Below are positions 3,835 through 30,583 of a DNA stretch of 32,000 bases, piece after piece; the stretch's first letter is position 1, and every line of letters begins with the position of its first letter. Source of the stretch: Opitutales bacterium (GTDB taxonomy: Bacteria > Verrucomicrobiota > Verrucomicrobiia > Opitutales > PNEW01); NCBI GenBank assembly GCA_965219535.1, contig CBDCNV010000002.1, forward strand, positions 1,500,001 to 1,532,000, read 5' to 3'. The translations under genes were made by a program, and so were the position numbers. A model generated the notes under the pieces. It saw only the letters and a program-made list of their open reading frames with translations. It ran no database searches and had not been told where the DNA came from.

Positions 3835-4812
3835 AAAATCGCTGTCGCGCCAGGTGTATTGGGGTTGGTAGCCGAGGAGCTGTGTTGCCTTGGCGTGGGA
3901 GACGAGGGTTGCGTAACCTTCAAGCGATTCCTTGAGCGGCACTTGGGGGTAGTATTGTTCAACGAGTGTTTTTGATTCCGTAGTGCTGCAGGTGTCGTCG
4001 GCGTTGATAAGAAAGACGTCGTGTAAGATCTGTGTATTCTCAATCGCGAGACGGAAGGATTGGATGGCATCTCTTACATCGGTGACTGCCCAGAGCAAAC
4101 TGCGTGGGGAGGGTGGTCCCGGCATCTCTTACATCGGTGACTGCCCAGAGCAAACTGCGTGGGGAGGGTGGTCCCGGCCGTGGCCCCCTTCGGGGTCTTC
4201 GATGACTTTGCGATAGCGTTTCTGCCAGAACTCTTCAACCGAGAGACCTTTAGCCCAACCTGTCTGGACGGCGATACTGGCACCCTCGCGGTCAAGACAC
4301 CAATTGTGATTGATGCGCAGGCAGATAGTCTGTAACCCGTAGAGTTCGGTGTAACGCTTGCACACCTGCTCAGCGAGCAGTTTGCTCATTCCGTATTCGT
4401 CCTGTGGCGCGCAGGGGTGTTCCTCGTCGAGAGGGAGGTATTCAGGGATGATCTCGTTTGACTGAAATGAAAATCCGGTCGCCGCGCCGGATGAGGCGAA
4501 GACAAATTTTTTTATACCCGCGGAAACCGCAGCTTCGATTACGTTCACCGTTCCCATGACATTGAGATGCAGCAGCTCTTTAGTCGTTGCACGACCAGGT
4601 CCCGGCACCGCGGCGAGGTGAATGACAGCATCGTGACCCTGGCAAGCGGACTTGAGTCGATCGCGGTCATTAATGTCGCCCTCGATCCAGTCGGCATGAT
4701 CTTCAATTGGTTTGCTGCGGCTGTAGGAGGAAAGAGAGTAGCCATAGCGTTTTAATCCGCGCAGCAGATAGCTGCCAATCACGCCGCTTCCGCCTGTCAC
4801 CATGATTTGCAT
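3811..4812 (-). pseudogene. NAD-dependent epimerase/dehydratase (extended SDR), split into 227-aa and 104-aa ORFs
   Basis: The N-terminal ORF (4129-4812) has the Rossmann motif MVTGGSGVIGSYL and YGMSK (YxxxK). The C-terminal ORF (3811-4125) continues the fold (SLLWAVTDVRDAIQSFRLAIE). The break coincides with a 55-bp tandem duplication. The junction reads ATG TAA GAG ATG, with both ORFs in the same frame. Confidence 0.7.
4066..4178. repeat. perfect 55-bp tandem duplication inside the epimerase gene
   Basis: Segments 4066-4120 and 4121-4175 are identical (GGCATCTCTTACATCGGTGACTGCCCAGAGCAAACTGCGTGGGGAGGGTGGTCCC), and 3 further nt (4176-4178) continue the repeat. Confidence 0.9.
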
Positions 4813-5124: not shown

Positions 5125-5146
5125 AAGGTTGCAGACTTGCAACCTT
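5125..5146 (+). promoter_or_regulatory. hairpin/palindrome abutting the AKR start codon
   Basis: AAGGTTGCA (5125-5133), a 4-nt loop GACT, then TGCAACCTT (5138-5146). The ATG at 5147 follows immediately. Confidence 0.45.
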
Positions 5147-6126
5147 ATGGACTATGTGAATTTTGGATCGGCGGGGTTGAAGGTGAGTCGGTTGGCTTTG
5201 GGCCTGGGTTTTCGGGGGCAGAAGAGTGAAGTAGAAGCACAGCGGGTGGTTGAACATGCGATCGAGCGGGGTATTAACCTGCTCGACTGTGCCAATGTCT
5301 ACGGTATGATGGATAATCGCGAAAACAGCGGGGGTTCCGAAATTGTCCTGGGTAAAGCGCTCAAAGGTAAACGCGACGAGGTGGTCATCACTTCAAAAGT
5401 ATGTAGTTCTATCGGACCGGGGCCTAACGATAACGGTCTGTCCCGGTATCATATCCTGCGTGAAGTAGAGCGCTCACTCAAACGACTGGAAACTGATCAT
5501 CTCGATGTCTATCTCGTTCACAGTTTCGACAATAGCAGCCCTCTCGAAGAAACGATGCGGGCCCTGGATGACCTGGTGCACAGTGGAAAAGTACGCTACA
5601 TCGGCTGTTGCAATTTTGCCGCCTGGCAGGTCTGCCGCGCGTTGTGGATTTCGGATGTAAAACATCTCACCCCTTTCATGTGTGTGCAAAACAGTTATAA
5701 CCTGCTCAATCGCAAACTTGAAACTGAGCTGTTCGGTCTGGTGCGGGAGCAGGGTTTGGGTGTAATGGTTTATTCACCGCTCGCGGTGGGGCTTCTCAGC
5801 GGGGACTATATTCCCGGCCAGCCACTGCCCGCAGGTTCACACTGGGACCGTTCCGATCGATCGCTGGATGAACTGTTTCAAGATGCCGGGGGGGAGCGGT
5901 AACCACCCTGATCGACATGGCAAAATAAATCGGAAAGACCCCCGCCCAACTGGCCCTCGCCTGGGTGCTTTCGCAACCCGAAGTAACGGTTGCTATTACC
6001 GGTGGCGACACCATCCAGCACCTCGATGACAATCTCGGTGCGCTCGATATCGAACTGGATGATGCCGTGCGAGAAAAGCTGAATACAGTGTCGGAAGTGT
6101 TTGTTAAAGATGCGTTGGATGTTTGA
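5147..6126 (+). pseudogene. aldo/keto reductase with a frameshift in a G7 tract and an in-frame TAA
   Basis: The gene starts MDYVNFGSAGLKVSRLALG, a typical AKR N-terminus; the track's TTG at 5129 lies in the repeat arm. The frame breaks at GGGGGGG (5888-5894), and adding one G restores ...DAGGGAVTTLIDMAK. The continuing frame has a TAA at 5926-5928, then IGKTPAQLALAWVLSQPEVTVAITGGDTIQHLDDNLGAL up to the stop at 6124-6126. Confidence 0.75.
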
Positions 6127-6149: not shown

Positions 6150-6525
6150 ATCGAAGGTCAAAAGGGAAGAGCGCCAAAGCGCGTGGTAAGTATCAGGTTT
6201 AAGATGAATAGGTGGAGCGGGCTGTCCCAGCGCGCTTCCGACATCTGATATTCCAGGAGGCTGTCATTATGCAACCGACATTCCCCTGGATTGCCGCGCT
6301 ACGCTCGCAATGACAAAAGGGGAAAAATATACGCGGGTGCGCGCTTTTAGTCGAAGGTCTAAGGTCTAAAGTCGAAAGGGAAGAGCGCTGGAGCGCGATT
6401 TAAGTATTAGGTTTTAGGTGAAGTACGTTAAAAGTCGAAGGTCGTAAGTTTAAAGTGGGGACAACAGCAAACCATGGACGGTGCATCTCATATTCACATT
6501 CGACTTTTGACCTTTGACTTTTGAC
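6143..6525. repeat. spacer mosaic bounded by inverted GTC-A-run arrays
   Basis: Forward units lie at 6143-6164, 6350-6377 (GTCGAAG GTCTAAG GTCTAAA GTCGAAA) and 6434-6454. Also present: GAGCGC-N4-GCGCG hairpins with TTAGG-type words (6169-6203, 6383-6423); a GGTGGAGCGGGCTGTCCCAGCGCGC module (6211-6235); a half copy of the CTCGCAATGACAA hairpin element (6262-6316). The reverse arm TTCGAC TTTTGAC CTTTGAC TTTTGAC is at 6499-6525. Confidence 0.9.
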
Positions 6526-6547
6526 TCCGATTTTAAAAAAATCGGAG
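6525..6547 (+). promoter_or_regulatory. 9-bp hairpin directly upstream of the methyltransferase start codon; includes the only SD-like GGAG
   Basis: CTCCGATTT (6525-6533) pairs with AAATCGGAG (6539-6547). The ATG is at 6550. Confidence 0.45.
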
Positions 6548-6549
6548 CC

Positions 6550-7281
6550 ATGAGCAGAGTAATTTCATTTATATACGGTGTTGTTGGGCATGTGGGGTTC
6601 TTGTTGGTGTTTTTATACCTGGTCGGATTTCTTGCTAATTTTTGTGTTCCAAAGGGTATAGATTCGGGTGAAGTGGGGCCCACTGGTATGGCGCTTTTAA
6701 TTAATATTCTTTTGCTCGCGATATTCGGGATCCAACACAGCGTCATGGCGCGACCGGGTTTCAAGAAGTGGTGGACTGGATTTGTCCCCAACCACATTGA
6801 GCGAAGCACTTATGTGCATATCAGTAATTTGCTCTTCATCCTTCTTTTCTGGTTATGGCAGCCGATGCCGGGAGTGATATGGCATGTTGAGAATGAAATA
6901 GGTTCAATCGTTTTATGGTGCCTCTTTGGGATCGGTTGGTTGATCGTCTTTCTCTCTTCATTGATGATTAATCATTTTGATCTTTTTGGCACGCGCCAGG
7001 TTTACCTGCATCTTCGAAAACAGGAATATACACAACTCGAATTTAAAACCAGGGGGTTCTATAAAATCATCCGTCATCCAATTATGCTGGGATGGATAAT
7101 AGCCTTCTGGGCGACGCCGCATATGTCAGTCGGCCATCTTGTTTATGCTATCGGTACCACGGTATACATTTTAATTGCGATTAAATTTGAGGAGAGAGAT
7201 TTAGTAAATTTCCTTGGTGAAGCCTATGAAAATTACCGCCGTGAAGTATCTATGTTGATACCGATGAAGAAGAAGCGCTAA
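6550..7281 (+). CDS. polytopic membrane methyltransferase, PEMT/ICMT superfamily (MddA-like candidate)
   Basis: The start was moved to the ATG at 6550 (MSRVISFIYG...) because the track's start lies in the repeat arm. The protein has several hydrophobic helices. Its C-terminal signature is RHPIMLGWIIAFWATPHMS...EERDLVNFLGEAYENYRREV, and the QHSVMARPGFKKWW segment resembles methanethiol S-methyltransferase-type proteins as I recall them. Confidence 0.6.
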   Translation: MSRVISFIYGVVGHVGFLLVFLYLVGFLANFCVPKGIDSGEVGPTGMALLINILLLAIFGIQHSVMARPGFKKWWTGFVPNHIERSTYVHISNLLFILLFWLWQPMPGVIWHVENEIGSIVLWCLFGIGWLIVFLSSLMINHFDLFGTRQVYLHLRKQEYTQLEFKTRGFYKIIRHPIMLGWIIAFWATPHMSVGHLVYAIGTTVYILIAIKFEERDLVNFLGEAYENYRREVSMLIPMKKKR

Positions 7282-7287
7282 AGCGCT

Positions 7288-7412
7288 GTCAAAAGTCTAA
7301 GGTCGAAAGTCGAAAGCGGGGAGAATCAGTGAACAGTGGAGTATGCTCTACATATATTCTTTTCTGCATTTGCGCAATATAGCGTTCGACTTTAGACCTT
7401 TGACATTTTGAC
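7288..7412. repeat. spacer bounded by inverted GTC-A-run arrays
   Basis: The forward arm GTCAAAA GTCTAAG GTCGAAA GTCGAAA is at 7288-7315. GTGAACAGTGG is at about 7328-7338. The reverse arm TTCGAC TTTAGAC CTTTGAC ATTTTGAC is at 7385-7412. Confidence 0.9.
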
Positions 7413-7434: not shown

Positions 7435-8355
7435 ATGCCTATCGTATTTAAAGATAAGCTATCCCCGTTTCCGGCAATGACGCCGGGGCAGCGGCTCTAC
7501 CTGGACGTCAACGGTTACGTGGTGGTTGAAAACACGTTGACACATGATGAGGTGAATCGTCTGCGTGATGCGATCTACGAATTGAGACAGAAGTTTTTTG
7601 ACGCGGAAGACCCATTGAAGCATTCTATTGGCACATGCAGAGTAAGCGCCGACAAATGCAATAAGTTTTTTGCTAGCTTTCACCGTATTTTAGAAGCGGA
7701 CGAAAGGTTCCTGGAACATTTCATCCACCCGCGGATTGTGAACCTGGCGGAGGAGGCAGTCGGTGGAAAAGTGCTCCTGGAAGAGGCTGCGGTGATCGTC
7801 AATTCCCGCGACCCGGAGGTCGATCCAGATAAACCGTATACATACGGCTTTCACCGGGGAGGGCAACCGGGCTTCGACAGCTATATCTATGACGATCTTT
7901 ATCACTGCACGTTTACCCGCACACTAACTAACCTGACTGACATTGGGCCAGACGATGGGGGCACGGCCTTGATCGCCGGCAGTCACAAGCTCAGCTGCAA
8001 TGAAAATGAAATGGTCGCCGCCGCTTATGAAAATCCCGATTTGATTCACCACGTTGAAGCGCCAGCGGGTTCCACGATGATCATGTATGAAACAACGATT
8101 CATTCCACGAGTCCCATCCGCAGCGACCGCGAGCGAGTGATGATCCTCGGTAGTTACGCGCATCCCAAGCACCAGGTGCAGGGTGGTGCGTGGTCCGACG
8201 CGGTAATTGCGAAAGCCCCAGAGGAATCGCGCGAGATACTCACCGGAAGACCCTTCTGGACATGGCCCGAGCGACATCGCAAGTTAGGCGATGCACCGAA
8301 TAAAGAGAATCAACCTTATGTGGCAAGAATGTGGTCGGTGGATCATGAAGCGTGA
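7435..8355 (+). CDS. PhyH-family Fe(II)/2OG oxygenase-fold protein with H-R-G in place of the H-x-D motif
   Basis: The start was moved to the ATG at 7435 (MPIVFKDK...). PhyH landmarks are present: DDGGTALIAGSHK and the distal TTIHSTSPIRSDRER. The proximal motif reads YGFHRGGQPG (His codon 7852-7854, Gly codon 7858-7860). Confidence 0.75.
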   Translation: MPIVFKDKLSPFPAMTPGQRLYLDVNGYVVVENTLTHDEVNRLRDAIYELRQKFFDAEDPLKHSIGTCRVSADKCNKFFASFHRILEADERFLEHFIHPRIVNLAEEAVGGKVLLEEAAVIVNSRDPEVDPDKPYTYGFHRGGQPGFDSYIYDDLYHCTFTRTLTNLTDIGPDDGGTALIAGSHKLSCNENEMVAAAYENPDLIHHVEAPAGSTMIMYETTIHSTSPIRSDRERVMILGSYAHPKHQVQGGAWSDAVIAKAPEESREILTGRPFWTWPERHRKLGDAPNKENQPYVARMWSVDHEA

Positions 8356-8602: not shown

Positions 8603-9448
8603 ATGTTTAATGCGGGGTTACATGCTAAGGAGATCGAGGATCAGGGATATACGCTGGTGCCGGATACGTTGAGCGCGGAACAGATTCGGGATGCGACGGA
8701 AGCGATGCTCGAGGTCTATGAGAGTGAACGCGAAGTCGCGGAAGGCTGCGAAACACAGACTGAACACGCGTATGCTGTTCATCATCTCTTCGCGAAGCAT
8801 CGTTACTTTGAGGAATTTTATCTCAATGAGAAAGTCAACGCGGTCATTCGTCTGGTGCTGGGAGAAGACATGGTTTTGACGGAGACCCATGCGCGGTCGA
8901 TTCTACCGAGCAGCGGTCGGGAGGCAAGGCACGGATTCCAGGTACACGTGGATCGCGAAGCGTTCAGTGTCCTACCTTTTGTGGGCAGCACGCACCATTA
9001 CCCGATGGCGGTCAATAATGCGTGGTTCCTCGTCGATTTTACCGAAAATAATGGCGCCACCGTTCTCTGGCCCAGCTCGCACAAGCTGAATCAGGTGCCG
9101 GACCCGGAAGGGGACTACACAGAAATGCCCCAAAAAAGAGCGCTCGGTCCCGCGGGAACCTGTGTTATCTGGGATGCCTCGGTGTGGCACGCGAGTGGGA
9201 AAAATATTAGCGATCACATCCGACATTCGGTTCTAGGGTTTTATCACCGTCGATGGATACGGGGAACGATCAATGTCGAACATGTCATACCGCCCGAGGT
9301 GCTGGCAAGGATGTCACCGGAGATGCATCGCCTGATCGGTCTCTACGACTGGGCGCCTGAATATTCCGCGGTCAAAAAAATGACCACCGAGGAGATCGCT
9401 GCTTTGACGCCGGAGCAGAGGGATGTGTTGGGGTTTATGATATACTGA
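8603..9448 (+). CDS. PhyH-family Fe(II)/2-oxoglutarate dioxygenase
   Basis: 281-aa ORF with a canonical HxD (FQVHVDRE), NNGATVLWPSSHK, and the distal VWHASGKNISDHIRHS. A GGAG lies 5-8 nt upstream of the ATG. Confidence 0.8.
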   Translation: MFNAGLHAKEIEDQGYTLVPDTLSAEQIRDATEAMLEVYESEREVAEGCETQTEHAYAVHHLFAKHRYFEEFYLNEKVNAVIRLVLGEDMVLTETHARSILPSSGREARHGFQVHVDREAFSVLPFVGSTHHYPMAVNNAWFLVDFTENNGATVLWPSSHKLNQVPDPEGDYTEMPQKRALGPAGTCVIWDASVWHASGKNISDHIRHSVLGFYHRRWIRGTINVEHVIPPEVLARMSPEMHRLIGLYDWAPEYSAVKKMTTEEIAALTPEQRDVLGFMIY

Positions 9449-12868: not shown

Positions 12869-13726
12869 ATGCTTTCTCAATCACAGATTGAACATTTTAA
12901 CATTTTTGGGGTTCTTATTTTAAGAAATGTTCTAAATGAGGAAGATGTCCGGAAGTTAAACGCGGAGTGGGACGCTAAACTGGCGACGACCACGGATGGG
13001 GGTGCTCATGGGGAAAAAAAATATATAATGAGCTGGCCCAGTCTTGGACCAGATACTCCATTCACGGGATCGCTCTTAGAAGATCCACGGGTAAACAAAA
13101 TCGTAGAGTCGATTTACAAGGATGGGTATTACGGGATTTCCTGCAATTCGAGCAGCAAAGCGGGTGAAACTCCCTGGCATCCCGATTCCAATTTTAAAAA
13201 TCTTCACGGGATAAAGGTGGTCACCTATCTGCAGCCGCTCGATGGCGATAATGGAGCCCTGCGTGTCATTCCCGGATCGCACCGTTACCCCATACATGAC
13301 GAGATCAAGCAAATCAAAATGAGTAAGACTGAATTTGATGGCGTGAAGCGAGAGAAAAAAGTTGATGATGCCAATGCAGAGACAAACGGTGGTCTCGCTA
13401 TTGGTGAAGTCCCCGCTCTTATCTGCTCCACGAATCCGGGAGATATAATTGTTTTTGATTTCAGGGTTTGGCATGCCAGCACCGGTGGAGCCTATGACCG
13501 TCGCCTGTTATCAATGATGTTCTTGAAACAGGCGGCAACGCCGGAAGAAGAGGATGCCATCAACGAGCAAGTGCAATTATCGCAAAAAACTCGAGCAGCT
13601 CGCTCTAAGGAGAGCTTTGCCAAGCCGCAATCGGAGTATCACCCGGATTGGATAGCCAATCCCGATAATGATCCCCGCCGGCAACGCTGGATAGATTGGA
13701 TGAGACTGAAAGGATACTTTCAGTAG
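12869..13726 (+). CDS. PhyH-family Fe(II)/2OG dioxygenase, subfamily shared with 19498-20310 and 20650-21495
   Basis: 285-aa ORF with WHPDS (HxD), DNGALRVIPGSHR and FRVWHASTGGAYDRR. The C-terminal motif WIANPDNDPRRQRWIDW is shared with the two paralogues. Confidence 0.8.
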   Translation: MLSQSQIEHFNIFGVLILRNVLNEEDVRKLNAEWDAKLATTTDGGAHGEKKYIMSWPSLGPDTPFTGSLLEDPRVNKIVESIYKDGYYGISCNSSSKAGETPWHPDSNFKNLHGIKVVTYLQPLDGDNGALRVIPGSHRYPIHDEIKQIKMSKTEFDGVKREKKVDDANAETNGGLAIGEVPALICSTNPGDIIVFDFRVWHASTGGAYDRRLLSMMFLKQAATPEEEDAINEQVQLSQKTRAARSKESFAKPQSEYHPDWIANPDNDPRRQRWIDWMRLKGYFQ

Positions 13727-13932: not shown

Positions 13933-14667
13933 GGGTCATGCCTAGAACAGAGGGTATCTTAAGCACATATTAAGGATGTTACGATGGAGGTTTTGATGAC
14001 GATGGTTAAAGCGATATTCAGTTTCTTTGAGGTGCAGTTGGAAGGTCCTACGAGAAAGACCTTTGAACTTAGCCAATCGAAGTTTAGCAAAAGCCCAAAA
14101 AGATTCAATCCCGTTAATGTGGGAGTGTCCCTGGGCAAACTCGTTGTCGTTGTGATTGACACGGTAATGCTTCTTATAGCCCAGATCCACGAGGCCGTTG
14201 TAAGCACGCCACCCGTCAGAATAAAGCACACTGTCAAAAGTAACTCTCCCTTGGATCACCGCATGCAGAGCGGCTCTGGAGACATTGCGTACAACCTGGG
14301 TATAGACTTTCCCATTACGCTTGAGCAACCCGAAGACGGGCACTTTCTTGAATGCACCCCGACCTCTTTGCCCTGGAATTCTTTTGCCTCCAAAGTAGGA
14401 CTCATCCATTTCCACCGACCCCCTAAAAGGCGAGGCCTGCGCACATTGCTGCAACAAACGCTCCCGCAACAAGCGCAAATAACGGTTGACCGTGTTACGA
14501 TTCAATCCTGTCAATTGGGCTATCTTCAACGCTTCCATATCCAAGCTAAAACACTTTACTAACTGCCGAAATTTGGCCTCAGAAATTTTTGAACGATGTA
14601 CATACTTATTTCTCATTTGTCTAGAATAGCTTACACATCTGATATGTGTCTATTCTAGGCATGACCC
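13933..14667 (-). mobile_element. IS1595-family (ISXO2-like) insertion sequence, 735 bp
   Basis: The terminal inverted repeats are GGGTCATGCCTAGAACAG (13933-13950) and CTATTCTAGGCATGACCC (14650-14667), matching at 17 of 18 positions. They are flanked by 8-bp TTAATTAA on both sides (13925-13932, 14668-14675), consistent with an 8-bp target duplication. The element holds a single transposase ORF. Confidence 0.8.
13942..14616 (-). CDS. ISXO2-like DDE transposase (IS1595 family)
   Basis: 224-aa ORF. The motif VEMDESYFGGKRIPGQRGRGAFKKVPVFGLLKRNGKVYT is characteristic of ISXO2-like transposases as I recall them. Confidence 0.8.
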   Translation of the reverse strand: MRNKYVHRSKISEAKFRQLVKCFSLDMEALKIAQLTGLNRNTVNRYLRLLRERLLQQCAQASPFRGSVEMDESYFGGKRIPGQRGRGAFKKVPVFGLLKRNGKVYTQVVRNVSRAALHAVIQGRVTFDSVLYSDGWRAYNGLVDLGYKKHYRVNHNDNEFAQGHSHINGIESFWAFAKLRLAKFKGLSRRTFQLHLKETEYRFNHRHQNLHRNILNMCLRYPLF

Positions 14668-17960: not shown

Positions 17961-19344
17961 TGTCGGTACAACCAGGACATGGTTTACAGATTTAGATCAA
18001 GACATGGTTTACACTTTGTGAGGGATGCTGAACGGTAATCGGGTTATATAGTTAAGTTAATGTTATGCGGTTTTAGAGGTTTGGCTGGCATTGTTGGGGC
18101 CGCAAGCGGCCCCAATGAAAGCAGCCGTTGAAAGGTCAATCTGACCGATTCTGAGAGTGGCAAAGTAAACATCGAAGTGTACCGTGTCTAGTGGTTTTAG
18201 TCCAACGCTCCAACCGGCGAGGGCGGTGGAGATAGGAATCTGGAAGCCATCGAGTTTGATAGACCCGCTTTTTGAGACCCGGCGAGTCATCAAATCATAG
18301 CTGATATCGGCAGGAGTGCCACCGTAAGGATGAGAGCTGTGCTGATAGATTTCAGAGGGCGTGCTCATGGCAAGAGCCGCATGGGGGCGTTCTTCATTGA
18401 AGGTCTTGCGCCACAGATCGAAGGCCACCTGTTGGGTGCGAAGATCGTCCTGGGCATGTTTTTGCAACTCCTCTTTGATATCGCGATGGAGACGCTCATG
18501 GGCACCGTTATCCTGGGGTTTACCCGGACGTCCACGCTCGAGATTGATCCCTAAGGCCAGCCACCAGGCCGCCAGTTTGCTCAGGCCCAGGACCGCATTG
18601 GCACTGGCAAAGGGACTGCCGTTGTCGCTGCGGATGCAAGCGGGAAGTCCATAGCGTTCAAAGAGTTTTGTGAAGCATTCACGCACCGCTTCGCTACGGG
18701 CTGAACTGAGCACCCGCACCTCTAATACATAGCGGCTCCATTCATCCCGTACCGTCAAAGGTTCACAACGGTTGCCATCAACGGTGTGCCACCACCCTTT
18801 GAAGTCTACGCTCCACACTTCGTTACAGCCACTGGCCTTGACGCTGCGGTAAAGGCGTCCGCTTTTTTGAGCGCTTCTGCGCCGACGCTTTTGCACCAGT
18901 CCCGCACGTTCCAAGACCCGTTTCACGCTCGAGTCTGAGGGGGCCTTCCCGTAACGCCTCTGGTAAAGCTCGCGGATCTTGTAGGGGCCCCACGTCGGGT
19001 GATGATGCTTGAGTTTGATCAGCGTACATACTACTGATTCGGATAGTTCCTGAACACTTCCATGCGGTCGGCGTGAGCGCTCGTGCAACCCCTCCATCCC
19101 TTCGCTCAGGAAGCGCTTCTTCCATTTATACCCTGTCGGTCGGCTGATCCCGTAGTCTTCACACAGCTCGTTCATCTTTACTCCCGGTTGCATCGATTCC
19201 AGGGCGAATTGGTATCTTTGGTCCATTTTATTTGTTTCCTTCCATGACATCATACCCCTTACTTAGCATCCTTCTTTCTTTGGCAATCTGTAAAGGATGT
19301 CCTGAACCTTTTGTGTAAAGAATGTCTTGAACCTATACCTGTCA
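17961..19344 (-). mobile_element. IS481-like insertion sequence (boundaries approximate)
   Basis: The element holds a single HTH plus rve/DDE transposase ORF. The imperfect termini are TGTCGGTACAACCAGGACATGGTTTACAG (17961-) and the reverse complement of 19313-19344, TGACAGGTATAGGTTCAAGACATTCTTTACAC. Each end also carries a second subterminal copy of CARGACATNNTTTACAS. Confidence 0.55.
18063..19253 (-). CDS. IS481-family transposase (HTH plus integrase-core DDE)
   Basis: 396-aa ORF. The N-terminal HTH region reads ELCEDYGISRPTGYKWKKRF. The DDE landmarks are WSVDFKG, IRSDNGSPF and QDNGAHERLHRDIK. Confidence 0.8.
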   Translation of the reverse strand: MMSWKETNKMDQRYQFALESMQPGVKMNELCEDYGISRPTGYKWKKRFLSEGMEGLHERSRRPHGSVQELSESVVCTLIKLKHHHPTWGPYKIRELYQRRYGKAPSDSSVKRVLERAGLVQKRRRRSAQKSGRLYRSVKASGCNEVWSVDFKGWWHTVDGNRCEPLTVRDEWSRYVLEVRVLSSARSEAVRECFTKLFERYGLPACIRSDNGSPFASANAVLGLSKLAAWWLALGINLERGRPGKPQDNGAHERLHRDIKEELQKHAQDDLRTQQVAFDLWRKTFNEERPHAALAMSTPSEIYQHSSHPYGGTPADISYDLMTRRVSKSGSIKLDGFQIPISTALAGWSVGLKPLDTVHFDVYFATLRIGQIDLSTAAFIGAACGPNNASQTSKTA

Positions 19345-19488: not shown

Positions 19489-19508
19489 CACCTCATTTCA
19501 ATGAGGTG
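19489..19508 (-). other. 8-bp hairpin with the stop codon in its loop
   Basis: CACCTCAT (19489-19496) pairs with ATGAGGTG (19501-19508). The loop is TTCA, and the stop TCA (reverse complement TGA) is at 19498-19500. Confidence 0.5.
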
Positions 19509-20310
19509 CCTCTGCATCTTGAAAAATATTTATATAGTTATATTTGTGGAGCCAATCGATCCAGCGTTGGCGCACAGGGTTGTTATCGGGGTTGGCTAAC
19601 CATTCAGGGGGGTATTCCGAGGTGGGATTTTCGAAGGTGTTTTTACCCATACCGACTCGCGTCTGATTTGTGATGTCTGCTTCATTGCGCAAGGACGCTT
19701 CTTCTTCGGGGGATCTGGCATCATCGATGTAAATAAGCGAAACCATGCGACGGTCGAGGGAACCGCCCCAACTGGCGTGCCACATGTGGGTATCAAAAAG
19801 AAAGGCGTCACCGGGCTCGGTCTCACAGATATAGGTGGGGGCCCCTTTGATATCTGATCGGTCTATGTATTCTACTTCATGATGCAAGGGGGGTCTATGA
19901 GAACCAGCGATAAATCGCAGCGCGCCGTTCTCTCCATTGAGCGATTGTAAATAAATGGGGAACTTGATCATGCGGACATTAAAGTCGCGGCAGTCCGGAT
20001 GCCAATTTGTGTTATTAATATAGCTGCCGGAATTACAGGAGCGCCCAATGCAATTTTCTCCCAGTATCTGTTCGGCGATGCTCAGGAATCGCTCGTCTTC
20101 AATGAGAGATGCGAGGTGAGGGGTCTGCGATCCCAGGCTGGACCAACTGCAGTATTTTACTTCTTCCTGTGGTCCAGTGTAACGAAGTGTGGATTCCAGC
20201 TTAAGCTGTATCTCTTCGTTGAAAATTTTGATCTCGTCCTGACTGACCAAACCTCGCAGTGGAACGAAACCGAATATGTTGAAGTGAGCGAGTTGGGATG
20301 GGGTTAGCAT
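19498..20310 (-). CDS. PhyH-family Fe(II)/2OG dioxygenase (subfamily paralogue)
   Basis: 270-aa ORF with WHPDC (HxD), ENGALRFIAGSHR and THMWHASWGGSLDRR. The C-terminal motif is EWLANPDNNPVRQRWIDWL. Confidence 0.8.
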   Translation of the reverse strand: MLTPSQLAHFNIFGFVPLRGLVSQDEIKIFNEEIQLKLESTLRYTGPQEEVKYCSWSSLGSQTPHLASLIEDERFLSIAEQILGENCIGRSCNSGSYINNTNWHPDCRDFNVRMIKFPIYLQSLNGENGALRFIAGSHRPPLHHEVEYIDRSDIKGAPTYICETEPGDAFLFDTHMWHASWGGSLDRRMVSLIYIDDARSPEEEASLRNEADITNQTRVGMGKNTFENPTSEYPPEWLANPDNNPVRQRWIDWLHKYNYINIFQDAEAPH

Positions 20311-20646: not shown

Positions 20647-20674
20647 TTTTCAGGATACCGGAGCGTCCTGAAAA
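20647..20674 (-). other. 8-bp hairpin spanning the stop codon
   Basis: TTTTCAGG (20647-20654, containing the stop at 20650-20652) pairs with CCTGAAAA (20667-20674). The loop is 12 nt. Confidence 0.45.
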
Positions 20675-21495
20675 CTTTCAATATAACCCCACTTGTGGAG
20701 CCAGTCGATCCAGCGTTGCCGAACGGGATCTTTATCTGGATTGGCCAACCATTCGAGGGGGTATTCGGGTTGGCGTTCGGCATAAGTGTTCTTAGCGAGA
20801 TTTTCACGCACGGCGTGAGCACCTTTTACATTTTCACGTATTGCGTCCTCTGCTTCAGGTGTCTTTGGATTCTTTATATATATGGGGGACAGCATACGGC
20901 GGTCAATTTTCCCTCCCCATGAGGCGTGCCAGATATGGGTGTCAAAAACAAGGACATCACCGACTTCCACTTTACAGGCATGCGTGGGGACATCTTTAAT
21001 CGAGGCACCTTTGCGTGTAGCATCATCATCATATCCCGGTGGATCAAATTTGGTTACGGCCTCATGGAATGGCTGCTTATGTGAACCGGGGATAAGGCGC
21101 AAGGCCCCGTTGTTTGCGTCGAGGTCTTGTAAGTAGATGGGAAACTTAATGGATTGATGATGGAAATTGCGACAATCGGGATGCCACCTGGTATCGTTGA
21201 CATAGCTGCCGGCATTACAGGATGCGAGGTTACAGTCCTCACCCAGTATCTGCTCGGCGATACTTAAGATCCTGGGATCTTGAGGGAGCTTAGATAAAAC
21301 AGGGGTCTCGGAAGTCAAGTTAGACCAACTGCAGTAATTGGCACCTTCATCCTGAGGTCCGGTGAATCGCAGCGTCGATTCTAACTTTAACTGGAATTCT
21401 TCGTTGAAGACTTTGATTTCGTCCGGACTAAAAAGCTCTCGCATCGTTACGAAACCAAAAGTTTTAAAATAGGTGAGTTGGTGTTTGGTGAGCAT
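20650..21495 (-). CDS. PhyH-family Fe(II)/2OG dioxygenase (subfamily paralogue, in tandem with 19498-20310)
   Basis: 281-aa ORF with WHPDC, NNGALRLIPGSHK and THIWHASWGGKIDRR. The C-terminal motif is EWLANPDKDPVRQRWIDWL. Confidence 0.8.
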   Translation of the reverse strand: MLTKHQLTYFKTFGFVTMRELFSPDEIKVFNEEFQLKLESTLRFTGPQDEGANYCSWSNLTSETPVLSKLPQDPRILSIAEQILGEDCNLASCNAGSYVNDTRWHPDCRNFHHQSIKFPIYLQDLDANNGALRLIPGSHKQPFHEAVTKFDPPGYDDDATRKGASIKDVPTHACKVEVGDVLVFDTHIWHASWGGKIDRRMLSPIYIKNPKTPEAEDAIRENVKGAHAVRENLAKNTYAERQPEYPLEWLANPDKDPVRQRWIDWLHKWGYIESFQDAPVS

Positions 21496-21666: not shown

Positions 21667-24600
21667 TCACCGCACTCCAGCTTCAAAACGGATGCGGGGG
21701 TCGAGCCAGAGGAGGAGGAGGTCGCTGACGAGGGTCCCGAGGACGCCGACGAGGCTTAGGACCATAAGCATGGATCCGGCGAGGTACATATCTTCCGTCA
21801 TGAGGGCTTCGAGCATCAAAGGACCGACTGTAGGGAGACTCAAGACCATGGCGACGATGGCACCGCCGGAAACGAGTTGTGGAAACAGCGTGCCGATCCC
21901 CGAGATAAAGGGATTGAGCGCGATGCGCACGGGATACTTCATAAGCAATTTTATCGGCCGAACCCCTTTAGCGAGCGCGGTTACAACATAGGGTTTTTTC
22001 AATTCATCGAGCAGGTTACCACGCATAACACGGATCATGCCGGCGGTGCCGGTGACCCCGAGGACGACGACGGGAAGCCAGATATGTTGCATGAGGTCGA
22101 CGACCTTGCTCGATGTCCATTCGGGTTGGCTCGCGTACTCGGGTGAAAACAACCCGGTCATGCTGATCCCGAAATAAATATTGCTCCAGTACATGAGTAG
22201 GAGAGCGAGAAGAAAGCTGGGGACGCACATCCCGATAAATCCGAGGAGGGAAAAAAAGTAATCACCGATCGAATACTGCCGCACGGCAGAGTAAATACCG
22301 ATGGGTAAAGCGACAGCCCAGGTAAAGAGGACAGAACCAAGCGAAATTAAAAAGGTGAGGAGGATGCGGTCGCCTACAACGTCATTGACCGGTGTTCTGC
22401 TCAGCATGGAAAAACCCAGGTGGCCCTGGAGCAGGCCCTGGTCCTTGGACTCGAAGGAGAGAAACCAGGGGAGTCCAAGCCAATGAGCGTACTGGGTGAG
22501 GACCGGTTCATCGAGGGGAAATATCTCGCGCAATTGTTCTGCTTCAATTTTTGCCTGATTATCGTTCGATAACTCAGCCTGTAAAATTTTCAAATCGATA
22601 TAATTAGAGGGAGGCAATTGAATAATAGAAAAAGAAATAATCGAAATAATAAGTAGGGTGGGTACCATGATAAGGAAACGTCTTCCCACATAAGGATGTT
22701 TTATGCCTGCGAGAATCACCCCAACCACTAAAATTCCCAGGATAAGATGACGGATGAACCGGCCGAGAGTGACTTCATCAAGGACACTGGGTAGAGGGGT
22801 GATATTCACCACTTCGCTTTTTATTTGAGCGATAGCACCCGGGGAATCATTGGGTTCTTCAAAATAATAGGATTCAAGTCCACCACTGGCAGGACTCTTA
22901 TAGGTAGATCCGTAGAGATGGTTACGCGGTACGTTTTTAAAACCATTCTTTACAATCGCTATTCTGGGAGCAGGTGAAGCAATGTTAATACTCCAGAGAT
23001 TTTCCGCCGCGATATCCTGATTTTCTCGATAAATGTCTCGCTGTTCTTCGACGGTGAGTGCGCTGTATGCGGCGTCGAGCAGTTCCATCGATCGTCGCAG
23101 GGGATGGCCAACTGGCGGTTCAATACCACCGTTTTTAATTGCTTCGGGGTTGCCGTATAGTCCCCCCTGTTGATACCATGATGAAAATCCAGAAGCGGAG
23201 ACATTACCGGGCGCATAGCGGTTAGCTGATACAAGGGGATTAAACGAACCTTCTAAACCGGAGATGAGAAAATCATTAACCCGAGCGGCGTTTTCAACGA
23301 TGTAAAGATTATAAGACCGAAATCTTTGAATCGTGTTCAGGCCGACTTTTTTCCAATCTTCAACGACAAAAGGAGAGGGACCTTCACTATAATTTGGGAT
23401 TATATCCATATACCACACCATGCGGCTACCATCTTTAAAGGTGCGAAACCCCTCGGAGTCGCGGCCAGTAAGCCCAAGCTCATCGAGCAGCTGATTAGCG
23501 CGATCGGGGTCGTGCTCGATGTAACTGTACCTGTGTTTATCATGGTAAAAAAGTGATTCTTTACCTGGTGACGCCTGTGCTGGTTCACCCACTCCATGGT
23601 AGACTGCATCGATAATATGCTGTCGATTGATGGCGAGAGAAAGCGCTTTCCGAAATCGCACATCATTAAGCAGCTCCCACTTTTTTTCAGAAGTTGGATC
23701 ATGGGGATCGATATGCTTATTTATATTTGGTAAGACGAACCATTCGGCAGTGCCGGATTCATACCAATGATATACTTCATAACCCCCGGCCTCGCGTTGT
23801 GACATAAAATAGGTATAATAGAGAAAGTAGATATTAAACGATTGCATTGTAATGGCACCATTCGCAGCAGCGATCGGTACCAACTGTGCAGTCTTTACAT
23901 CGATCATATATCGGTCGACATAGGGGAGTTGATTGCCCTCGGTATCGACGGCCCAATAATAGGGATTGCGGACAAAAGTCCGGGGCGGGTTGGGTTTATA
24001 GGTGTGATATACCCAGGGCCAGATACGGGGATGTTCCGGGTTGGTGGTGAGTATCAGGGTATTGTAAAGCGCTTTTCTCGTGGGTATTTTTTCTGCTTTC
24101 ATCCTCGCCTCGATAAGCGCATCGTTACCAATGTGGGGATGATATTTCTCCAGGTAGTGACGGGGTGAATAAAACACGAGTTCAATTGCCAGGCGTTCAA
24201 GCAATAGTCCATGAGGGTGAGGAAAAATAAGCTTCACGGTGTAAGGATCAATTTTCTGAATTTCTCCCCATTCTCCCTTCACCTTCATCGCCGTAGGGAA
24301 TTTAACTAATTTCTGTTTTATTTCATAGTTCCACCAATAGAGAATATCGTCGGCGGTAAATGGATGGCCGTCGGACCACTTCATTCCCTTGCGCAGGTAA
24401 AAAGTCCATTCTTTTTTGTCGGGGGAAGCCTCCCACCTTTTAGCGATGTGAGGGACAATGGGATTGCCCAGTGGCGACCAGCGTACGATATTCGATCCAT
24501 TCATCCAATGATCAATGTTATCAAGGGTTTGCGGACTATTCGTTACCAGGTGCCAGGTGCCGCCGTAATTACCGAGACCGTCTCTTCCTTGAATGACGAC

Positions 24601-24921
24601 CGGTTCGGGACCGACGCGCTCGGTGACGGGTGGCAGTTTGCCTTCTTCTACCAGTTCGGCGAGAATGGGCGATTCGCCTTTAGGATACCACTTTCCAGAC
24701 TCGCCCTCGCTGTAGTCGACATCGTGCTGTACTTTATATAGATCTTCTTCACTGAAACTGTTGTCTCTTAATTCTTCAGTCGCTTCGATAAGCTCCGGGC
24801 TATAGACAATAGGTTCAAGTTCCAGTTCCGGTTTCATCACTGCTCCCCAGAAATAGATGATAGCGAATAAGCAGCCGCTGGTTGATAAGAGAAGCGCGAA
24901 GTATTTATAAGCACGTTTCAC
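21667..24921 (-). CDS. fusion protein: N-terminal membrane anchor, family-5 (Dpp/Opp-type) solute-binding domain, linker TM, and DppB/OppB-type ABC permease
   Basis: 1084-aa ORF with a GTG start aligned to the paralogue's ATG. The anchor is YFALLLSTSGCLFAIIYFWGAV. SBP5 landmarks are GNYGGTWH and IAKRWEASPDKKEWTFYLRKGMKWSDGHPFTADD. The linker helix is LILGILVVGVILAGI. Permease landmarks are RRFLIMVPTLLIISIISFSIIQL, KKPYVVTALAKGVRPIKLLMKYPVRIALNP and the terminal WLDPRIR. Confidence 0.8.
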   Translation of the reverse strand: MKRAYKYFALLLSTSGCLFAIIYFWGAVMKPELELEPIVYSPELIEATEELRDNSFSEEDLYKVQHDVDYSEGESGKWYPKGESPILAELVEEGKLPPVTERVGPEPVVIQGRDGLGNYGGTWHLVTNSPQTLDNIDHWMNGSNIVRWSPLGNPIVPHIAKRWEASPDKKEWTFYLRKGMKWSDGHPFTADDILYWWNYEIKQKLVKFPTAMKVKGEWGEIQKIDPYTVKLIFPHPHGLLLERLAIELVFYSPRHYLEKYHPHIGNDALIEARMKAEKIPTRKALYNTLILTTNPEHPRIWPWVYHTYKPNPPRTFVRNPYYWAVDTEGNQLPYVDRYMIDVKTAQLVPIAAANGAITMQSFNIYFLYYTYFMSQREAGGYEVYHWYESGTAEWFVLPNINKHIDPHDPTSEKKWELLNDVRFRKALSLAINRQHIIDAVYHGVGEPAQASPGKESLFYHDKHRYSYIEHDPDRANQLLDELGLTGRDSEGFRTFKDGSRMVWYMDIIPNYSEGPSPFVVEDWKKVGLNTIQRFRSYNLYIVENAARVNDFLISGLEGSFNPLVSANRYAPGNVSASGFSSWYQQGGLYGNPEAIKNGGIEPPVGHPLRRSMELLDAAYSALTVEEQRDIYRENQDIAAENLWSINIASPAPRIAIVKNGFKNVPRNHLYGSTYKSPASGGLESYYFEEPNDSPGAIAQIKSEVVNITPLPSVLDEVTLGRFIRHLILGILVVGVILAGIKHPYVGRRFLIMVPTLLIISIISFSIIQLPPSNYIDLKILQAELSNDNQAKIEAEQLREIFPLDEPVLTQYAHWLGLPWFLSFESKDQGLLQGHLGFSMLSRTPVNDVVGDRILLTFLISLGSVLFTWAVALPIGIYSAVRQYSIGDYFFSLLGFIGMCVPSFLLALLLMYWSNIYFGISMTGLFSPEYASQPEWTSSKVVDLMQHIWLPVVVLGVTGTAGMIRVMRGNLLDELKKPYVVTALAKGVRPIKLLMKYPVRIALNPFISGIGTLFPQLVSGGAIVAMVLSLPTVGPLMLEALMTEDMYLAGSMLMVLSLVGVLGTLVSDLLLLWLDPRIRFEAGVR

Positions 24922-25161: not shown

Positions 25162-28100
25162 TTAGCGAACTCCTCCCTCCATCCTAATTCTTGGGTCGAG
25201 CCACAGAAGGAGGAGATCGCTGACGAGGGTGCCGAGGACACCGATGAGGCTCAATACCATGAGCATCGATCCGGCGAGAGATAAATCTTCGGTCATGAGG
25301 GCTTCGAGCATCATGGGGCCGACAGTGGGAAGGCTTAAGACCATGGCCACGATCGCCCCGCCGGAAACCAATTGTGGGAAGAGGGCTCCGATACCTGAGA
25401 TAAAGGGATTCAGGGCGATGCGCACGGGATATTTAAAAAGCAATTTGATCGGTCGAACCCCTTTTGCCATCGCGGTCACAACATAGGGTTTTTTTAATTC
25501 ATCGAGCAGGTTGCCGCGCATCACCCGAATCATGCCCGCGGTGCCGGTAACACCGAGAACGATGACGGGGACCCAGATGTGCTTCATGAGGTCGGCAACC
25601 TTGGCCCAGTTCCATTCCGGCTGACCGGCAAATTCGGGAGAAAATAATCCCGCTATGCTAATGCCGAAATAAATATTGCCCCAGTACATCATCAAGAGGG
25701 CGAGAAGAAAACTGGGAATGCACATTCCGATAAAACCGAGAAGGGTGAATAAGTAATCGCCGATTGAATACTGGCGCACGGCTGAGTAGATACCGATAGG
25801 CAGGGCGACGGCCCAGGTAAAGAGGACAGAACCGAGGGAAATAAAAAAGGTGAGGAGGATGCGGTCACCAACAACTTCATTTACCGATGTTCGGCTCTGC
25901 ATGGAAAATCCCAGGTGACCCTGGAGCAGGCCCTGGTCTTCGGATTTGAAAGAGAGAAACCAGGGTAGGCCAAGCCAATCTGCGTATTGGACAAGGAACG
26001 GTTCACCGAGGGGAAATATCTCGCGCAATTGTTCAGCTTCTATTTTCGCATTATTATCATCTTTCAACTCAGCCTCTAGAATCTTTAAATCAATATAATT
26101 TGAGGGCGGCAGTTGAATGATGGTAAAAGTAATGAGTGAGATGATGAGCAAGGTTGGTGCCATGATGATTAATCGCCGGCCAATATACGGATGCTTGAAT
26201 CCCATGAGAATAGCTCCCACCCCAACGATTCCCAATAAGAGATGGCGGATGATACGGGTCAGAGAATTACCTTTTCCTCCTTCATAGTTAACTGTATCGA
26301 GGGCGTTGGGCGCGGGAGTAATTTCCATTACTTCACGCTTTATTTGCGCGATTATGCCCGGAGAATCGTGAGGGTGATCATAATAAAAAGTTTCATGTCC
26401 ACAATTGGAAGGGCTCTTATAAGTAAAAGCATAAAGCGATAATCGCGGCACGTTTTTAAGATCCTTCTTAACAATGACCAACTTAGGTGGTGCAGAGGCT
26501 ATATTAATACCCCAGAGATTATCTGCTGCGATATCCTGATTTTCTCTCCAGATATCTATCTGTTCATTGAGCGTCAATGCAGCGGAGGCGGCAGCGTGTA
26601 ATTCCATCGATCGCCGCAGCGGATGATCAATCGGCGGCTCAATAGCTCCGTGTTTAAAAGCATCGGGATTTCCATATAAGCCTCCCGATTGATACCACAG
26701 AGTATATCCGGGGGCAGAACCAGTACCGGGAACATAGTTCCATGGACCCGCAAGGGGATGAAAATTCCCTCCGAGTGCACCGATGGAAAAATCATTAGTA
26801 CGAGAAGCACCCGCTACAGCGTGCACGGCGTAGGACTGCATTCTTTCGATCGTGTTAAGGCCAACTTTTTTCCAATCCTCAACGACAAAAGGCGAGGGAC
26901 CCAGGATATTCGGGATTATATCCAAATACCATACCATGCGGGTCCCGTCGTCAAAAGTGCGGAACCCTTCTGAATCACGACCAGTGAGACCCAGTTCATC
27001 GAGCAGCTCGTTGGCGCGATCGGGATCGTATTCGATGTAGCTGTTCCTTAATTTTTCATGATAAAAGGGTGATTCCTTACCCGGTGTCCCCTGTGCGGGT
27101 TCACCGATTCCACTGAATACCGCATCGATAATCTGTTGTCGATCAATGGCGAGAGAAAGTGCGATGCGGAAGCGCAGGTCATTGAGCAGTTTCCCTTTCT
27201 TTTCTGTTCTCGGATCGTCGGGATCAATGTGTTTGTTCAGATTGGGACGGATAGTCCAATCGCTGGCACCGGAATTATACCAATGATAAACTTCATAGTC
27301 CCCAGCTTCGCGTTGGGACATGAAATAGGTATAGTATTGAATATAGATATTATACGGCTGCATGGTAATGGCCCCGTTCGCGACAGCGATAGGAACCAAA
27401 TTATGAGATTTAGCTTCGACCGTATAGCGGTCGACATAGGGCAGTTGATTGCCCTCGGTATCGACGGCCCAATAATAGGGATTGCGGATATACGCCTGGG
27501 GAGGATTGGGTTTGTAGGTACGATAAATCCAGGGCCAGATACGCGGGTGGTCAGGGTTGTTAAGAATTTTCAAGGAAACATAAAGCGCTTTTCTTGTCGG
27601 TATCTTTTCTGCTCTCATTCTCGCCGCGATAAGCGCATCGTCGCCGAGCACGGGGTGATATTTTTCCAGGTAATGACGGGGCGCATACACATCGAGATCA
27701 GCGGTGAGGCGTTCGAGGAAGAGACCATGCGAGTGCGGGAATATAAATTTCACAGTGTAAGGATCAACTCTTATGATTTCACCCCGTTCTCCCTTTATCG
27801 TCATCGAGTGAGGAGCCGCCAGTAATTCCTGTTTTACCTCATACTCCCACCAGTAGAGAATATCATCGGCGGTGAAAGGATAGCCGTCGGACCACTTCAT
27901 TCCCCTGCGCAGGTAAAAGGTCCATTCTTTTTTATCGGGAGATGAATCCCAAGCTTTAGCGACATGAGGGACCATGGGATAACCCAGTGGTGACCAGCGC
28001 ACGAGAGTCGCCCCTGCCATCCAATGATGAGAAGAAGTAAATATCGCCGGACTGTTCGATACCATATTCCAGGTGCCCCCGTATTTACCCAAACCGTCTA

Positions 28101-28437
28101 CACCCTTAATGACGACCGGTTCGGGACCCACGCGATCGGCGACCGGTGGCAGTTTACCTTCCTCTACGAGTTCAGCGAGAATGGGTGACTCGCCCTTTGG
28201 ATACCAGTGGCCGGATTCGCCTTCACTGTAGTCTACATCATACTGTACTTTATAAAGGTCATCGTTGCTGAAACTGGTGTCTCTCAATTCTTCCGTCGCT
28301 TTGATAATCTCCGGACTATAAGTGAGGGGTTCACTTTCCAGTTCCGGTTTCAATACCGCACTCCAGAAATAGGAAACACCGAAGATGCAACAAGCGGTAA
28401 GGAGGAGGAGCCAGAAGTTTTTGAAAGCTAGTTTCAT
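25162..28437 (-). CDS. paralogous SBP5 plus DppB/OppB-type permease fusion protein
   Basis: 1091-aa ORF, collinear with 21667-24921 over its whole length. By eye the two are highly similar, most strongly in the permease half. The anchor, SBP, linker TM and permease layout is the same. Confidence 0.8.
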   Translation of the reverse strand: MKLAFKNFWLLLLTACCIFGVSYFWSAVLKPELESEPLTYSPEIIKATEELRDTSFSNDDLYKVQYDVDYSEGESGHWYPKGESPILAELVEEGKLPPVADRVGPEPVVIKGVDGLGKYGGTWNMVSNSPAIFTSSHHWMAGATLVRWSPLGYPMVPHVAKAWDSSPDKKEWTFYLRRGMKWSDGYPFTADDILYWWEYEVKQELLAAPHSMTIKGERGEIIRVDPYTVKFIFPHSHGLFLERLTADLDVYAPRHYLEKYHPVLGDDALIAARMRAEKIPTRKALYVSLKILNNPDHPRIWPWIYRTYKPNPPQAYIRNPYYWAVDTEGNQLPYVDRYTVEAKSHNLVPIAVANGAITMQPYNIYIQYYTYFMSQREAGDYEVYHWYNSGASDWTIRPNLNKHIDPDDPRTEKKGKLLNDLRFRIALSLAIDRQQIIDAVFSGIGEPAQGTPGKESPFYHEKLRNSYIEYDPDRANELLDELGLTGRDSEGFRTFDDGTRMVWYLDIIPNILGPSPFVVEDWKKVGLNTIERMQSYAVHAVAGASRTNDFSIGALGGNFHPLAGPWNYVPGTGSAPGYTLWYQSGGLYGNPDAFKHGAIEPPIDHPLRRSMELHAAASAALTLNEQIDIWRENQDIAADNLWGINIASAPPKLVIVKKDLKNVPRLSLYAFTYKSPSNCGHETFYYDHPHDSPGIIAQIKREVMEITPAPNALDTVNYEGGKGNSLTRIIRHLLLGIVGVGAILMGFKHPYIGRRLIIMAPTLLIISLITFTIIQLPPSNYIDLKILEAELKDDNNAKIEAEQLREIFPLGEPFLVQYADWLGLPWFLSFKSEDQGLLQGHLGFSMQSRTSVNEVVGDRILLTFFISLGSVLFTWAVALPIGIYSAVRQYSIGDYLFTLLGFIGMCIPSFLLALLMMYWGNIYFGISIAGLFSPEFAGQPEWNWAKVADLMKHIWVPVIVLGVTGTAGMIRVMRGNLLDELKKPYVVTAMAKGVRPIKLLFKYPVRIALNPFISGIGALFPQLVSGGAIVAMVLSLPTVGPMMLEALMTEDLSLAGSMLMVLSLIGVLGTLVSDLLLLWLDPRIRMEGGVR

Positions 28438-29755: not shown

Positions 29756-30583
29756 TTAGCGCGGTTCCGCTTTCAGAGTCAGTTCTTCTTTGTTATCGAG
29801 CCCTGCAACGACGACGAAAGTCTGCTCTTTTGGTCGTCCCTCTTTGGGAACGTAACGGACATTTGGAGAGAAGTAAGCATAGAGCGCAGTATTTCTTGAA
29901 TGGGGGGAAGTGTTAGGATTCGACCCGTGCATGATAAGGCTATGAAAGAATAAGATATTCCCCGCTGACAAGGGTACCTCTATTTGATCGGATAAATCTA
30001 CGCCATCGACAAGCGCTCTTACTTCCAGACCGCTGACAAGTCGCCCCCCAGCCGGGGTGCTCTCTTTCATTTTCAGCCCCCATTTATGACTTCCGGGAAC
30101 AACTTTAAAACAACTGTTAGCGGTGTTCGCGTCGTCAAGTGCGATGCTCACGGTAACCAGTCTAGGTGGCTCCATCGGCCAATAGGCAGAATCCTGGTGG
30201 AATTCGTGACCTGATCCATGAAATGCGGGTTTAAGCATCAAGGTGCTTCTAAAAAGAAGCAGATCGGGTCCGATCAAATTCTGCACGACTTCAATCAGTC
30301 GCGGGTGCTTAGAAAGTCTGTTGAAAACGGAAGAATGCACACGAGTGTTTTCAATTTTTCTCAACAAGGGCGTTCCGTCATCACGATTTATATTTTCGGC
30401 GTTCGGTTCGCGCTGAAAGTTAATCGATCTTGGATCGGCTTTCGCTTCAAATTCCGCGGCGAGGGTATGCAATCGTTGAATTTCTTCTTGGCACTCAATA
30501 ATCTCCTCCGGGCTGATCAGGTTTTCCATGATGAGATATCCCTGGTCCTCGAAAAATGAAAGCTGTTCGGCCTGATTCATCAT
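29756..30583 (-). CDS. PhyH-family Fe(II)/2OG dioxygenase (classical phytanoyl-CoA-dioxygenase-like motifs)
   Basis: 275-aa ORF with FHQDSAYW (HxD), NSCFKVVPGSHKWG and LIMHGSNPNTSPHSRN. Confidence 0.85.
   Translation of the reverse strand: MMNQAEQLSFFEDQGYLIMENLISPEEIIECQEEIQRLHTLAAEFEAKADPRSINFQREPNAENINRDDGTPLLRKIENTRVHSSVFNRLSKHPRLIEVVQNLIGPDLLLFRSTLMLKPAFHGSGHEFHQDSAYWPMEPPRLVTVSIALDDANTANSCFKVVPGSHKWGLKMKESTPAGGRLVSGLEVRALVDGVDLSDQIEVPLSAGNILFFHSLIMHGSNPNTSPHSRNTALYAYFSPNVRYVPKEGRPKEQTFVVVAGLDNKEELTLKAEPR

Follow-up and report, generated by a model that had tools for sequence, protein, structure and literature searches.

In the present study, we analyzed a window of 32,000 nucleotides from an Opitutales bacterium (contig CBDCNV010000002.1, positions 1,500,001 to 1,532,000), in which genes are arranged in the order of an FAD oxidoreductase, an epimerase, an aldo-keto reductase, MddA, the target gene at 7435-8355, a PhyH paralogue, an HpcH aldolase, a DUF4838/GH-like protein, a PhyH protein, and an IS1595 element. 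These are followed by a class-III aminotransferase, pyruvate kinase, an IS481 element, two PhyH proteins, two fused SBP5-permease proteins, an α/β-hydrolase, a PhyH protein, and an HpcH-like protein. The region is interrupted by transposase genes of the IS1595 family (13942-14616, minus strand) and IS481 family (18063-19253, minus strand). The tandem ORFs at 21667-24921 and 25162-28437 (both minus strand; approximately 1085 aa), in which SBP_bac_5 and BPD_transp_1 domains are fused, represent an uncommon architecture and are located between PhyH paralogues.

Regarding the target gene, the ORF at 7435-8355 on the plus strand matched PF05721 (PhyH) with 61.9 bits at a cut-off of 22, and residues 24-235 were aligned to positions 2-212 of the 213 positions in the profile. 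This HMM alignment, which had been suggested in an earlier note made from the sequence alone, places the protein in the PhyH family, to which five other named ORFs in the window also belong according to Pfam. The metal-binding motifs previously read from these five paralogues were correct, namely, HVD in 8603-9448, HPD in 12869-13726, 19498-20310, and 20650-21495, and HQD in 29756-30583. A search of NCBIfam returned no family match for the product of 7435-8355, and a scan for promoters and terminators gave matches at the chance level only. An alternative TTG start at 7408 would add nine residues; however, relatives begin at the ATG, including the closest one (P0001), which is 98% identical and also 306 aa in length. 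In a comparison with the Opitutales MAG orthologue (L001, OY829953.1), 30 codons differed synonymously and 7 non-synonymously (dN/dS 0.058). A ratio of approximately 0.06 shows that the gene is functional and under purifying selection.

Among the relatives that were gathered (328 at E<1e-5), the best 120 showed 45-98% identity, and an alignment, designated A2, comprises the window protein and 117 of these relatives (118 sequences) with an identity of approximately 43-98%. The gene and the residues discussed below are as follows.

7435..8355, plus strand: complete gene for a 306-aa PhyH-fold protein, predicted to be of the HygX-like "HxG…Ex3H" type (ORF, PF05721, AF2 model, hhalign to HygX, and dN/dS).
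7852..7860, plus strand: H140-R141-G142, the predicted proximal His ligand and a Gly replacing the canonical Asp/Glu ligand (profile alignments to PHYH, TlxI, and HygX; conservation).
7903..7905, plus strand: H157 (LYHC), invariant in the 118 close relatives.
7918..7920, plus strand: R162, the putative counterpart of HygX Lys137 (hhalign of CTFTR/CtFVK with HygX CPYVK137).
7984..7986, plus strand: H184 of GSHK, conserved without exception in the six aligned paralogues and in A2.
8047-8049, plus strand: H205, invariant in the 118 close relatives and behaving like H157.
8089..8091, plus strand: E219, the putative relocated carboxylate ligand of E-x3-H (invariance, alignment to HygX E202, and a strand break in the AF2 model).
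8101..8103, plus strand: H223, the predicted distal His ligand (invariant; aligned to PHYH H264 in lliHgsGq, HygX H206, and the distal His of TlxI).
8134..8136, plus strand: R234 (H223+11), the putative binder of the 2-oxoglutarate C5 carboxylate (aligned to HygX R217, which is H206+11, and to the Arg of GQNKTQGFR in PHYH).

The codons that the earlier note had given for H140 (CAC, 7852-7854), G142 (GGA, 7858-7860), and H223 (CAT, 8101-8103) were exact, and H140 is indeed located 44 residues ahead of H184 in GSHK. The note had also proposed, from an alignment by eye, that H-R-G is present in this protein in place of the H-x-D motif of PhyH hydroxylases. A single-sequence search of the PDB lacked the sensitivity to align the motif, and the family profile was used. 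When the A2 profile was compared with all PDB sequences, F-H-x-G was placed on L-H175-Q-D177 of human PHYH (2A1X) and on F-H-S-D of TlxI (7VBQ_B), and, thus, G142 falls at the position of the canonical carboxylate ligand. The assignment of His140 as the proximal ligand was also maintained because this residue was aligned to PHYH H175 and HygX H102. H140 and G142 are invariant in A2 (118/118), and none of the relatives in this alignment carries H-x-D at this site. The profile alignments and conservation, which go well beyond chance, confirm at the sequence level that G142 occupies the canonical carboxylate position and that this Gly characterizes the family as a whole and did not arise through the degeneration of a single copy.

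A MAFFT alignment of the six paralogues was ambiguous near the motif and put H140 on the His of FHGSG in the 29756 paralogue, not on that of its HQD. The possibility that the Asp of GFDSY (D148) serves as the ligand had been raised in the earlier note. This residue is Gly in 89 of the 118 sequences, and this substitution, together with the profile alignments to PHYH, TlxI, and HygX, rules out GFD as the true motif with its His lost.

A feature overlooked by the earlier note is the glutamate located four residues before the distal His, in MYE219TTIH223S. E219 is invariant in A2, as are H223, R234, H184, H157, and H205 (118/118 in each case). An acidic residue at the His-4 position accompanies the Gly: the corresponding residues in the five HxD paralogues are A, F, T, T, and S, while that in PHYH is P and that in TlxI is G. 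Position 162 is occupied by Lys in 111 of the 118 sequences and by Arg in the window copy and five others, such that a basic K or R residue is present in 117. As judged from the alignments, H184 of GSHK is a PhyH-family signature that also occurs in the HxD paralogues and does not distinguish the variant, whereas H157 and H205 are specific to the present family and are probably involved in substrate binding or the second sphere. The binding of 2-oxoglutarate by the Arg corresponding to R234 is established knowledge on the PhyH family.

The best match of the A2 profile among PDB sequences was HygX, with an E-value of 1.5e-13 (4XCB, 4XC9, 4XCA, and 4ZPI), followed by PHYH and TlxI. The sequence of HygX was recovered from the PDB search by the X-padding of an unaligned stretch, and the residues H102-G-G104, C133-P-Y-V-K137, E202-A-L-M-H206, and R217 agree with the motif and Lys137 numbering in a 2026 review on orthoester biosynthesis (PMC13374393). 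According to this review, the facial triad of HygX is H-X-G … E-X3-H, in which the acidic residue has been relocated, and the resulting gap near the iron is filled by Lys137; the enzyme converts hygromycin C to hygromycin B, with orthoester formation occurring in vitro (PMC13374393). An hhalign comparison of A2 with HygX gave a probability of 98.6% (E 5e-16, 23% identity over 210 columns), and paired H140 with H102, G142 with G104, C158 with C133, R/K162 with K137, E219 of E219-TTI-H223 with E202 of E202-ALM-H206, H223 with H206, and R234 with R217.

The window protein and HygX share the PhyH-type double-stranded beta-helix, an N-terminal PALT..Q....D..G[FY].V segment, H-x-G, a Cys-x3-Lys/Arg element on the strand after H-x-G (C133…K137 in HygX and C158…R162 in the window protein), GSHK, E-x3-H, and an Arg at His+11. 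On the other hand, their identity is only approximately 15-23% (15-17% by Foldseek), the loop of HygX between HxG and the Lys strand is 13 residues longer, HygX lacks the H157 and H205 residues of the family, with Y or a gap at the former position and S at the latter, and the gap-filling position is occupied by Arg in the window protein and by Lys in HygX. HygX is the hygromycin B orthoester synthase of Streptomyces hygroscopicus, whereas the window protein belongs to an Opitutales-like host and a catabolic or transport context; neither the window nor the 80 related loci revealed an orthosomycin or hygromycin (aminoglycoside) cluster. Since identity is low and such a cluster was not detected at these loci, the window protein is regarded, from the alignments, as sharing the site type of HygX without being its orthologue. 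Considering the differences in the host and context, its substrate and probably its reaction outcome are expected to differ from those of HygX. Canonical PhyH hydroxylases, such as PHYH (2A1X), EctD, TlxI, and the five paralogues, share the Pfam family, fold, distal His, and GSHK or G[ST]H with the window protein, and most also have the 2OG Arg; however, they carry H-x-D without an acidic residue at His-4 instead of H-x-G with E-x3-H. Among the four orthosomycin oxygenases, HygX alone matched the HxG profile in the PDB searches, while AviO1, EvdO1, and EvdO2 matched the HQD paralogue at 29756-30583; therefore, these searches place HygX in a PhyH lineage separate from that of AviO1, EvdO1, and EvdO2, which are its functional analogues.

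The AF2 model obtained from the A2 alignment had a pLDDT of 92.8 and a pTM of 0.90. In the DSSP assignment of this model, residues 219-222 break the beta-strand that bears H223, as would be expected with E219 and H223 both within reach of the metal. A Foldseek search of the PDB identified the double-stranded beta-helix fold, with E-values of approximately 1e-13 to HygX, AsqJ, EctD, PHYH, and SnoK/N. HygX chains were among the best matches and had the highest target-normalized TM-score (0.69-0.73) and lowest rmsd (3.5-3.7 Å); other good matches were proline hydroxylase, AsqJ, TlxIJ, EctD, SnoK/N, and PHYH.

The association between the Gly and the relocated Glu extends beyond close relatives. 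An HMMER search with the A2 profile against 1.84 billion cluster representatives (50% identity) yielded 1271 clusters at E≤1e-3, 99 of which reached E≤1e-30, and a remoter sample was formed from 64 of the best 150 cluster representatives, in which both His residues were alignable. In this sample, Gly142 and Glu219 occurred together in 49 of the 64 representatives, Glu219 was present in 59 and replaced by Asp in one, and Lys or Arg was found at position 162 in 59. A carboxylate was absent at both sites in only 3 of the 64, and one remote HxD member had Arg at position 219. Positions 157 (Y/R/Q/N) and 205 (R/Y/K/A/D/T) varied. Two sequences, P0185 (ISGSVIHSAS) and P0151 (FCQTLLHATG), have HxG and no acidic residue at His-4; unless sequencing errors explain this, they would be stronger candidates for a halogenase-like site than the window protein. 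Three remote relatives, P0163, P0197, and P0262, possess both H-R-D and E-x3-H and may represent transitional forms in the evolution from one triad, canonical or relocated, to the other.

A genome scan of GTDB species representatives detected 311 relatives. Latescibacterota, Caldilineaceae and other Chloroflexota, Gemmatimonadota, Dehalococcoidia, and Opitutales account for most of the best 80 of these 311. Phycisphaerae, Kiritimatiellia, and Zixibacteria contribute one genome each, and several of the 80 are marine or sponge-associated MAGs.

Taken together, these results suggest that the product of 7435-8355 is an active PhyH-fold Fe(II)/2OG oxygenase, the 2-His-1-carboxylate site of which is intact but rearranged in a HygX-like manner; we assign a probability of roughly 0.8 to this reading. 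Glu219 very probably takes over the iron-binding role of the missing Asp/Glu, and, among the fallback explanations in the earlier note, the use of an alternative ligand is favored by the alignment of the invariant E219-x3-H223 to E202-x3-H206 of HygX. We infer the coordination of iron by Glu219 and the role of Arg/Lys162 from homology to HygX and from the structural description in one review. In the proposed mechanism, iron would be held by His140 as the proximal ligand, His223 as the distal ligand, and Glu219, four residues before the distal His, with Gly142 in place of the usual Asp/Glu. The space freed beside the metal would be filled by the side chain of Arg162, which is Lys in most relatives, and Arg234 would bind the C5 carboxylate of 2-oxoglutarate. 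The activation of O2 would then lead to Fe(IV)=O and to the abstraction of hydrogen from a small polar substrate, which is probably a sugar-, aminosugar-, or amino-acid-derived metabolite imported by ABC transporters. The outcome may be hydroxylation, or oxidative cyclization or dehydrogenation as in HygX.

Fe(II)/2OG halogenases carry a small non-coordinating residue at the carboxylate position, Ala in the HxA motif of SyrB2 and Gly in the HxG motifs of WelO5 and BesD, and their iron has no protein carboxylate. The earlier note had accordingly described the motif of the window protein as a halogenase-like signature. The part of this description that concerns the Gly holds, and a free-standing halogenase, in which chloride or bromide enters a coordination site opened by Gly142 and becomes the target of substrate-radical rebound, would be in line with the invariance of G142, the occurrence of several relatives in marine and sponge-associated MAGs, and the description of the HygX site as "reminiscent of halogenases" (PMC13374393). 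The open halide site, however, was not supported. Since the invariant Glu219 is aligned to the relocated acid of HygX, a carboxylate ligand is very probably present, which argues against the defining feature of halogenases, and HygX itself is an oxidative cyclase (PMC13374393). Moreover, no halogenase was found at E<1 in the search of PDB sequences with the A2 profile, and none (SyrB2, CytC3, CurA-Hal, WelO5, or BesD) was among the top 50 Foldseek matches in the PDB. The window protein did not match TIGR01762 ("chlorinating enzyme"), whereas the HQD paralogue at 29756-30583 matched it weakly. In agreement with the earlier note, the window contained neither a carrier protein nor an NRPS, and the 80 related loci also lacked them. 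We consequently consider a halogenase to be highly improbable, and an oxygenase of ordinary chemistry to be most likely.

A site in which the carboxylate is replaced by H157 or H205 (three His, or two His and water), with Glu219 restricted to the second sphere, is similarly improbable. The invariance of H157 and H205 in the 118 close relatives is consistent with such a site; however, both positions vary in remoter members that retain HxG and Ex3H, neither is His in HygX, and E219 is far better conserved (59/64). The other fallback of the earlier note, a non-catalytic paralogue, considered here as a degenerate copy no longer able to bind metal, may appear attractive because the canonical Asp/Glu has gone and because the protein matches no NCBIfam family. 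Nevertheless, dN/dS was 0.058 against the orthologue, both His residues, Glu219, and Arg234 are invariant across phyla, the family is large and occurs widely, with 311 matches in the genome scan and 99 clusters (50% identity) at E≤1e-30, and the model is confident and well folded. This fallback was, thus, not upheld, and we regard it as extremely unlikely. Beyond the rearranged but ordinary oxygenase site favored here, a more speculative and rather unlikely proposal is that in this large environmental family, the position opened by G142 and the side chain of Lys/Arg162 bind an anion (halide) or a substrate oxygen directly at the iron, such that imported metabolites, glycoside-like or derived from amino acids, undergo a reaction other than hydroxylation, such as oxidative cyclization, dehydrogenation, or, if Glu219 is hemilabile, halogenation. 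If this proposal is true, HygX-type chemistry would represent a widespread catabolic reaction beyond antibiotic biosynthesis.

HxG or HxA in place of HxD often serves as a flag in the mining of Fe/2OG halogenases. The present family, with its 99 clusters (50% identity, E≤1e-30) and 311 genome matches, would constitute a large class of false positives in which the carboxylate has moved to E-x3-H, and these may be removed by an inspection of the His-4 position. The relocated-carboxylate site of the HygX type was already known, and what the present analysis adds is a large family that, from its sequences, appears to share this site. The unusual iron site of HygX would, therefore, not be limited to one antibiotic pathway, and may be common in uncultured Latescibacterota, Caldilineaceae, Gemmatimonadota, Dehalococcoidia, and Opitutales; biochemistry on one member would annotate a sizeable uncharacterized family.

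In terms of gene neighborhoods, contexts were phylum-specific, and no universal partner gene was found across the 80 related loci. In loci of Latescibacterota and Gemmatimonadota (L014-L036 and others), the family gene precedes a string of genes for DUF1611, an MR/MLE epimerase, Peptidase_C39_2, a PfkB kinase, Amidohydro_2, and UxuA. DUF1611 is presumed here to resemble DgcN of the D-glutamate catabolic pair, and the string from DUF1611 to UxuA hints at the catabolism of a compound containing a D-amino acid or sugar acid. In Caldilineaceae, a sugar-type ABC transporter lies before the family gene, and genes for a nitroreductase and a DegT aminotransferase come after it. These contexts point to the uptake and catabolism of polar small molecules, without a firm substrate.

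The closest genome, the Opitutales MAG OY829953.1, which has 85-95% nucleotide identity, showed rearranged synteny, and the HpcH aldolase and DUF4838 genes are missing between its two PhyH genes. In the window, two ORFs upstream of the target look C-terminally truncated, the NAD-epimerase ORF at 4129-4812 (minus strand; 227 aa, covering positions 1-171 of 240 in the Pfam profile) and the aldo-keto reductase ORF at 5129-5902 (plus strand; 257 aa, positions 5-208 of 291), and each may have been frameshifted or become a pseudogene. The target is directly preceded by a gene at 6514-7281 on the plus strand that was labeled NnrU-like by Pfam alone; however, it matched the NF045656 equivalog for MddA, methanethiol S-methyltransferase, with 343.9 bits at a cut-off of 270, which implies, as far as this profile match indicates, the formation of dimethylsulfide from methanethiol in an Opitutales-like bacterium.
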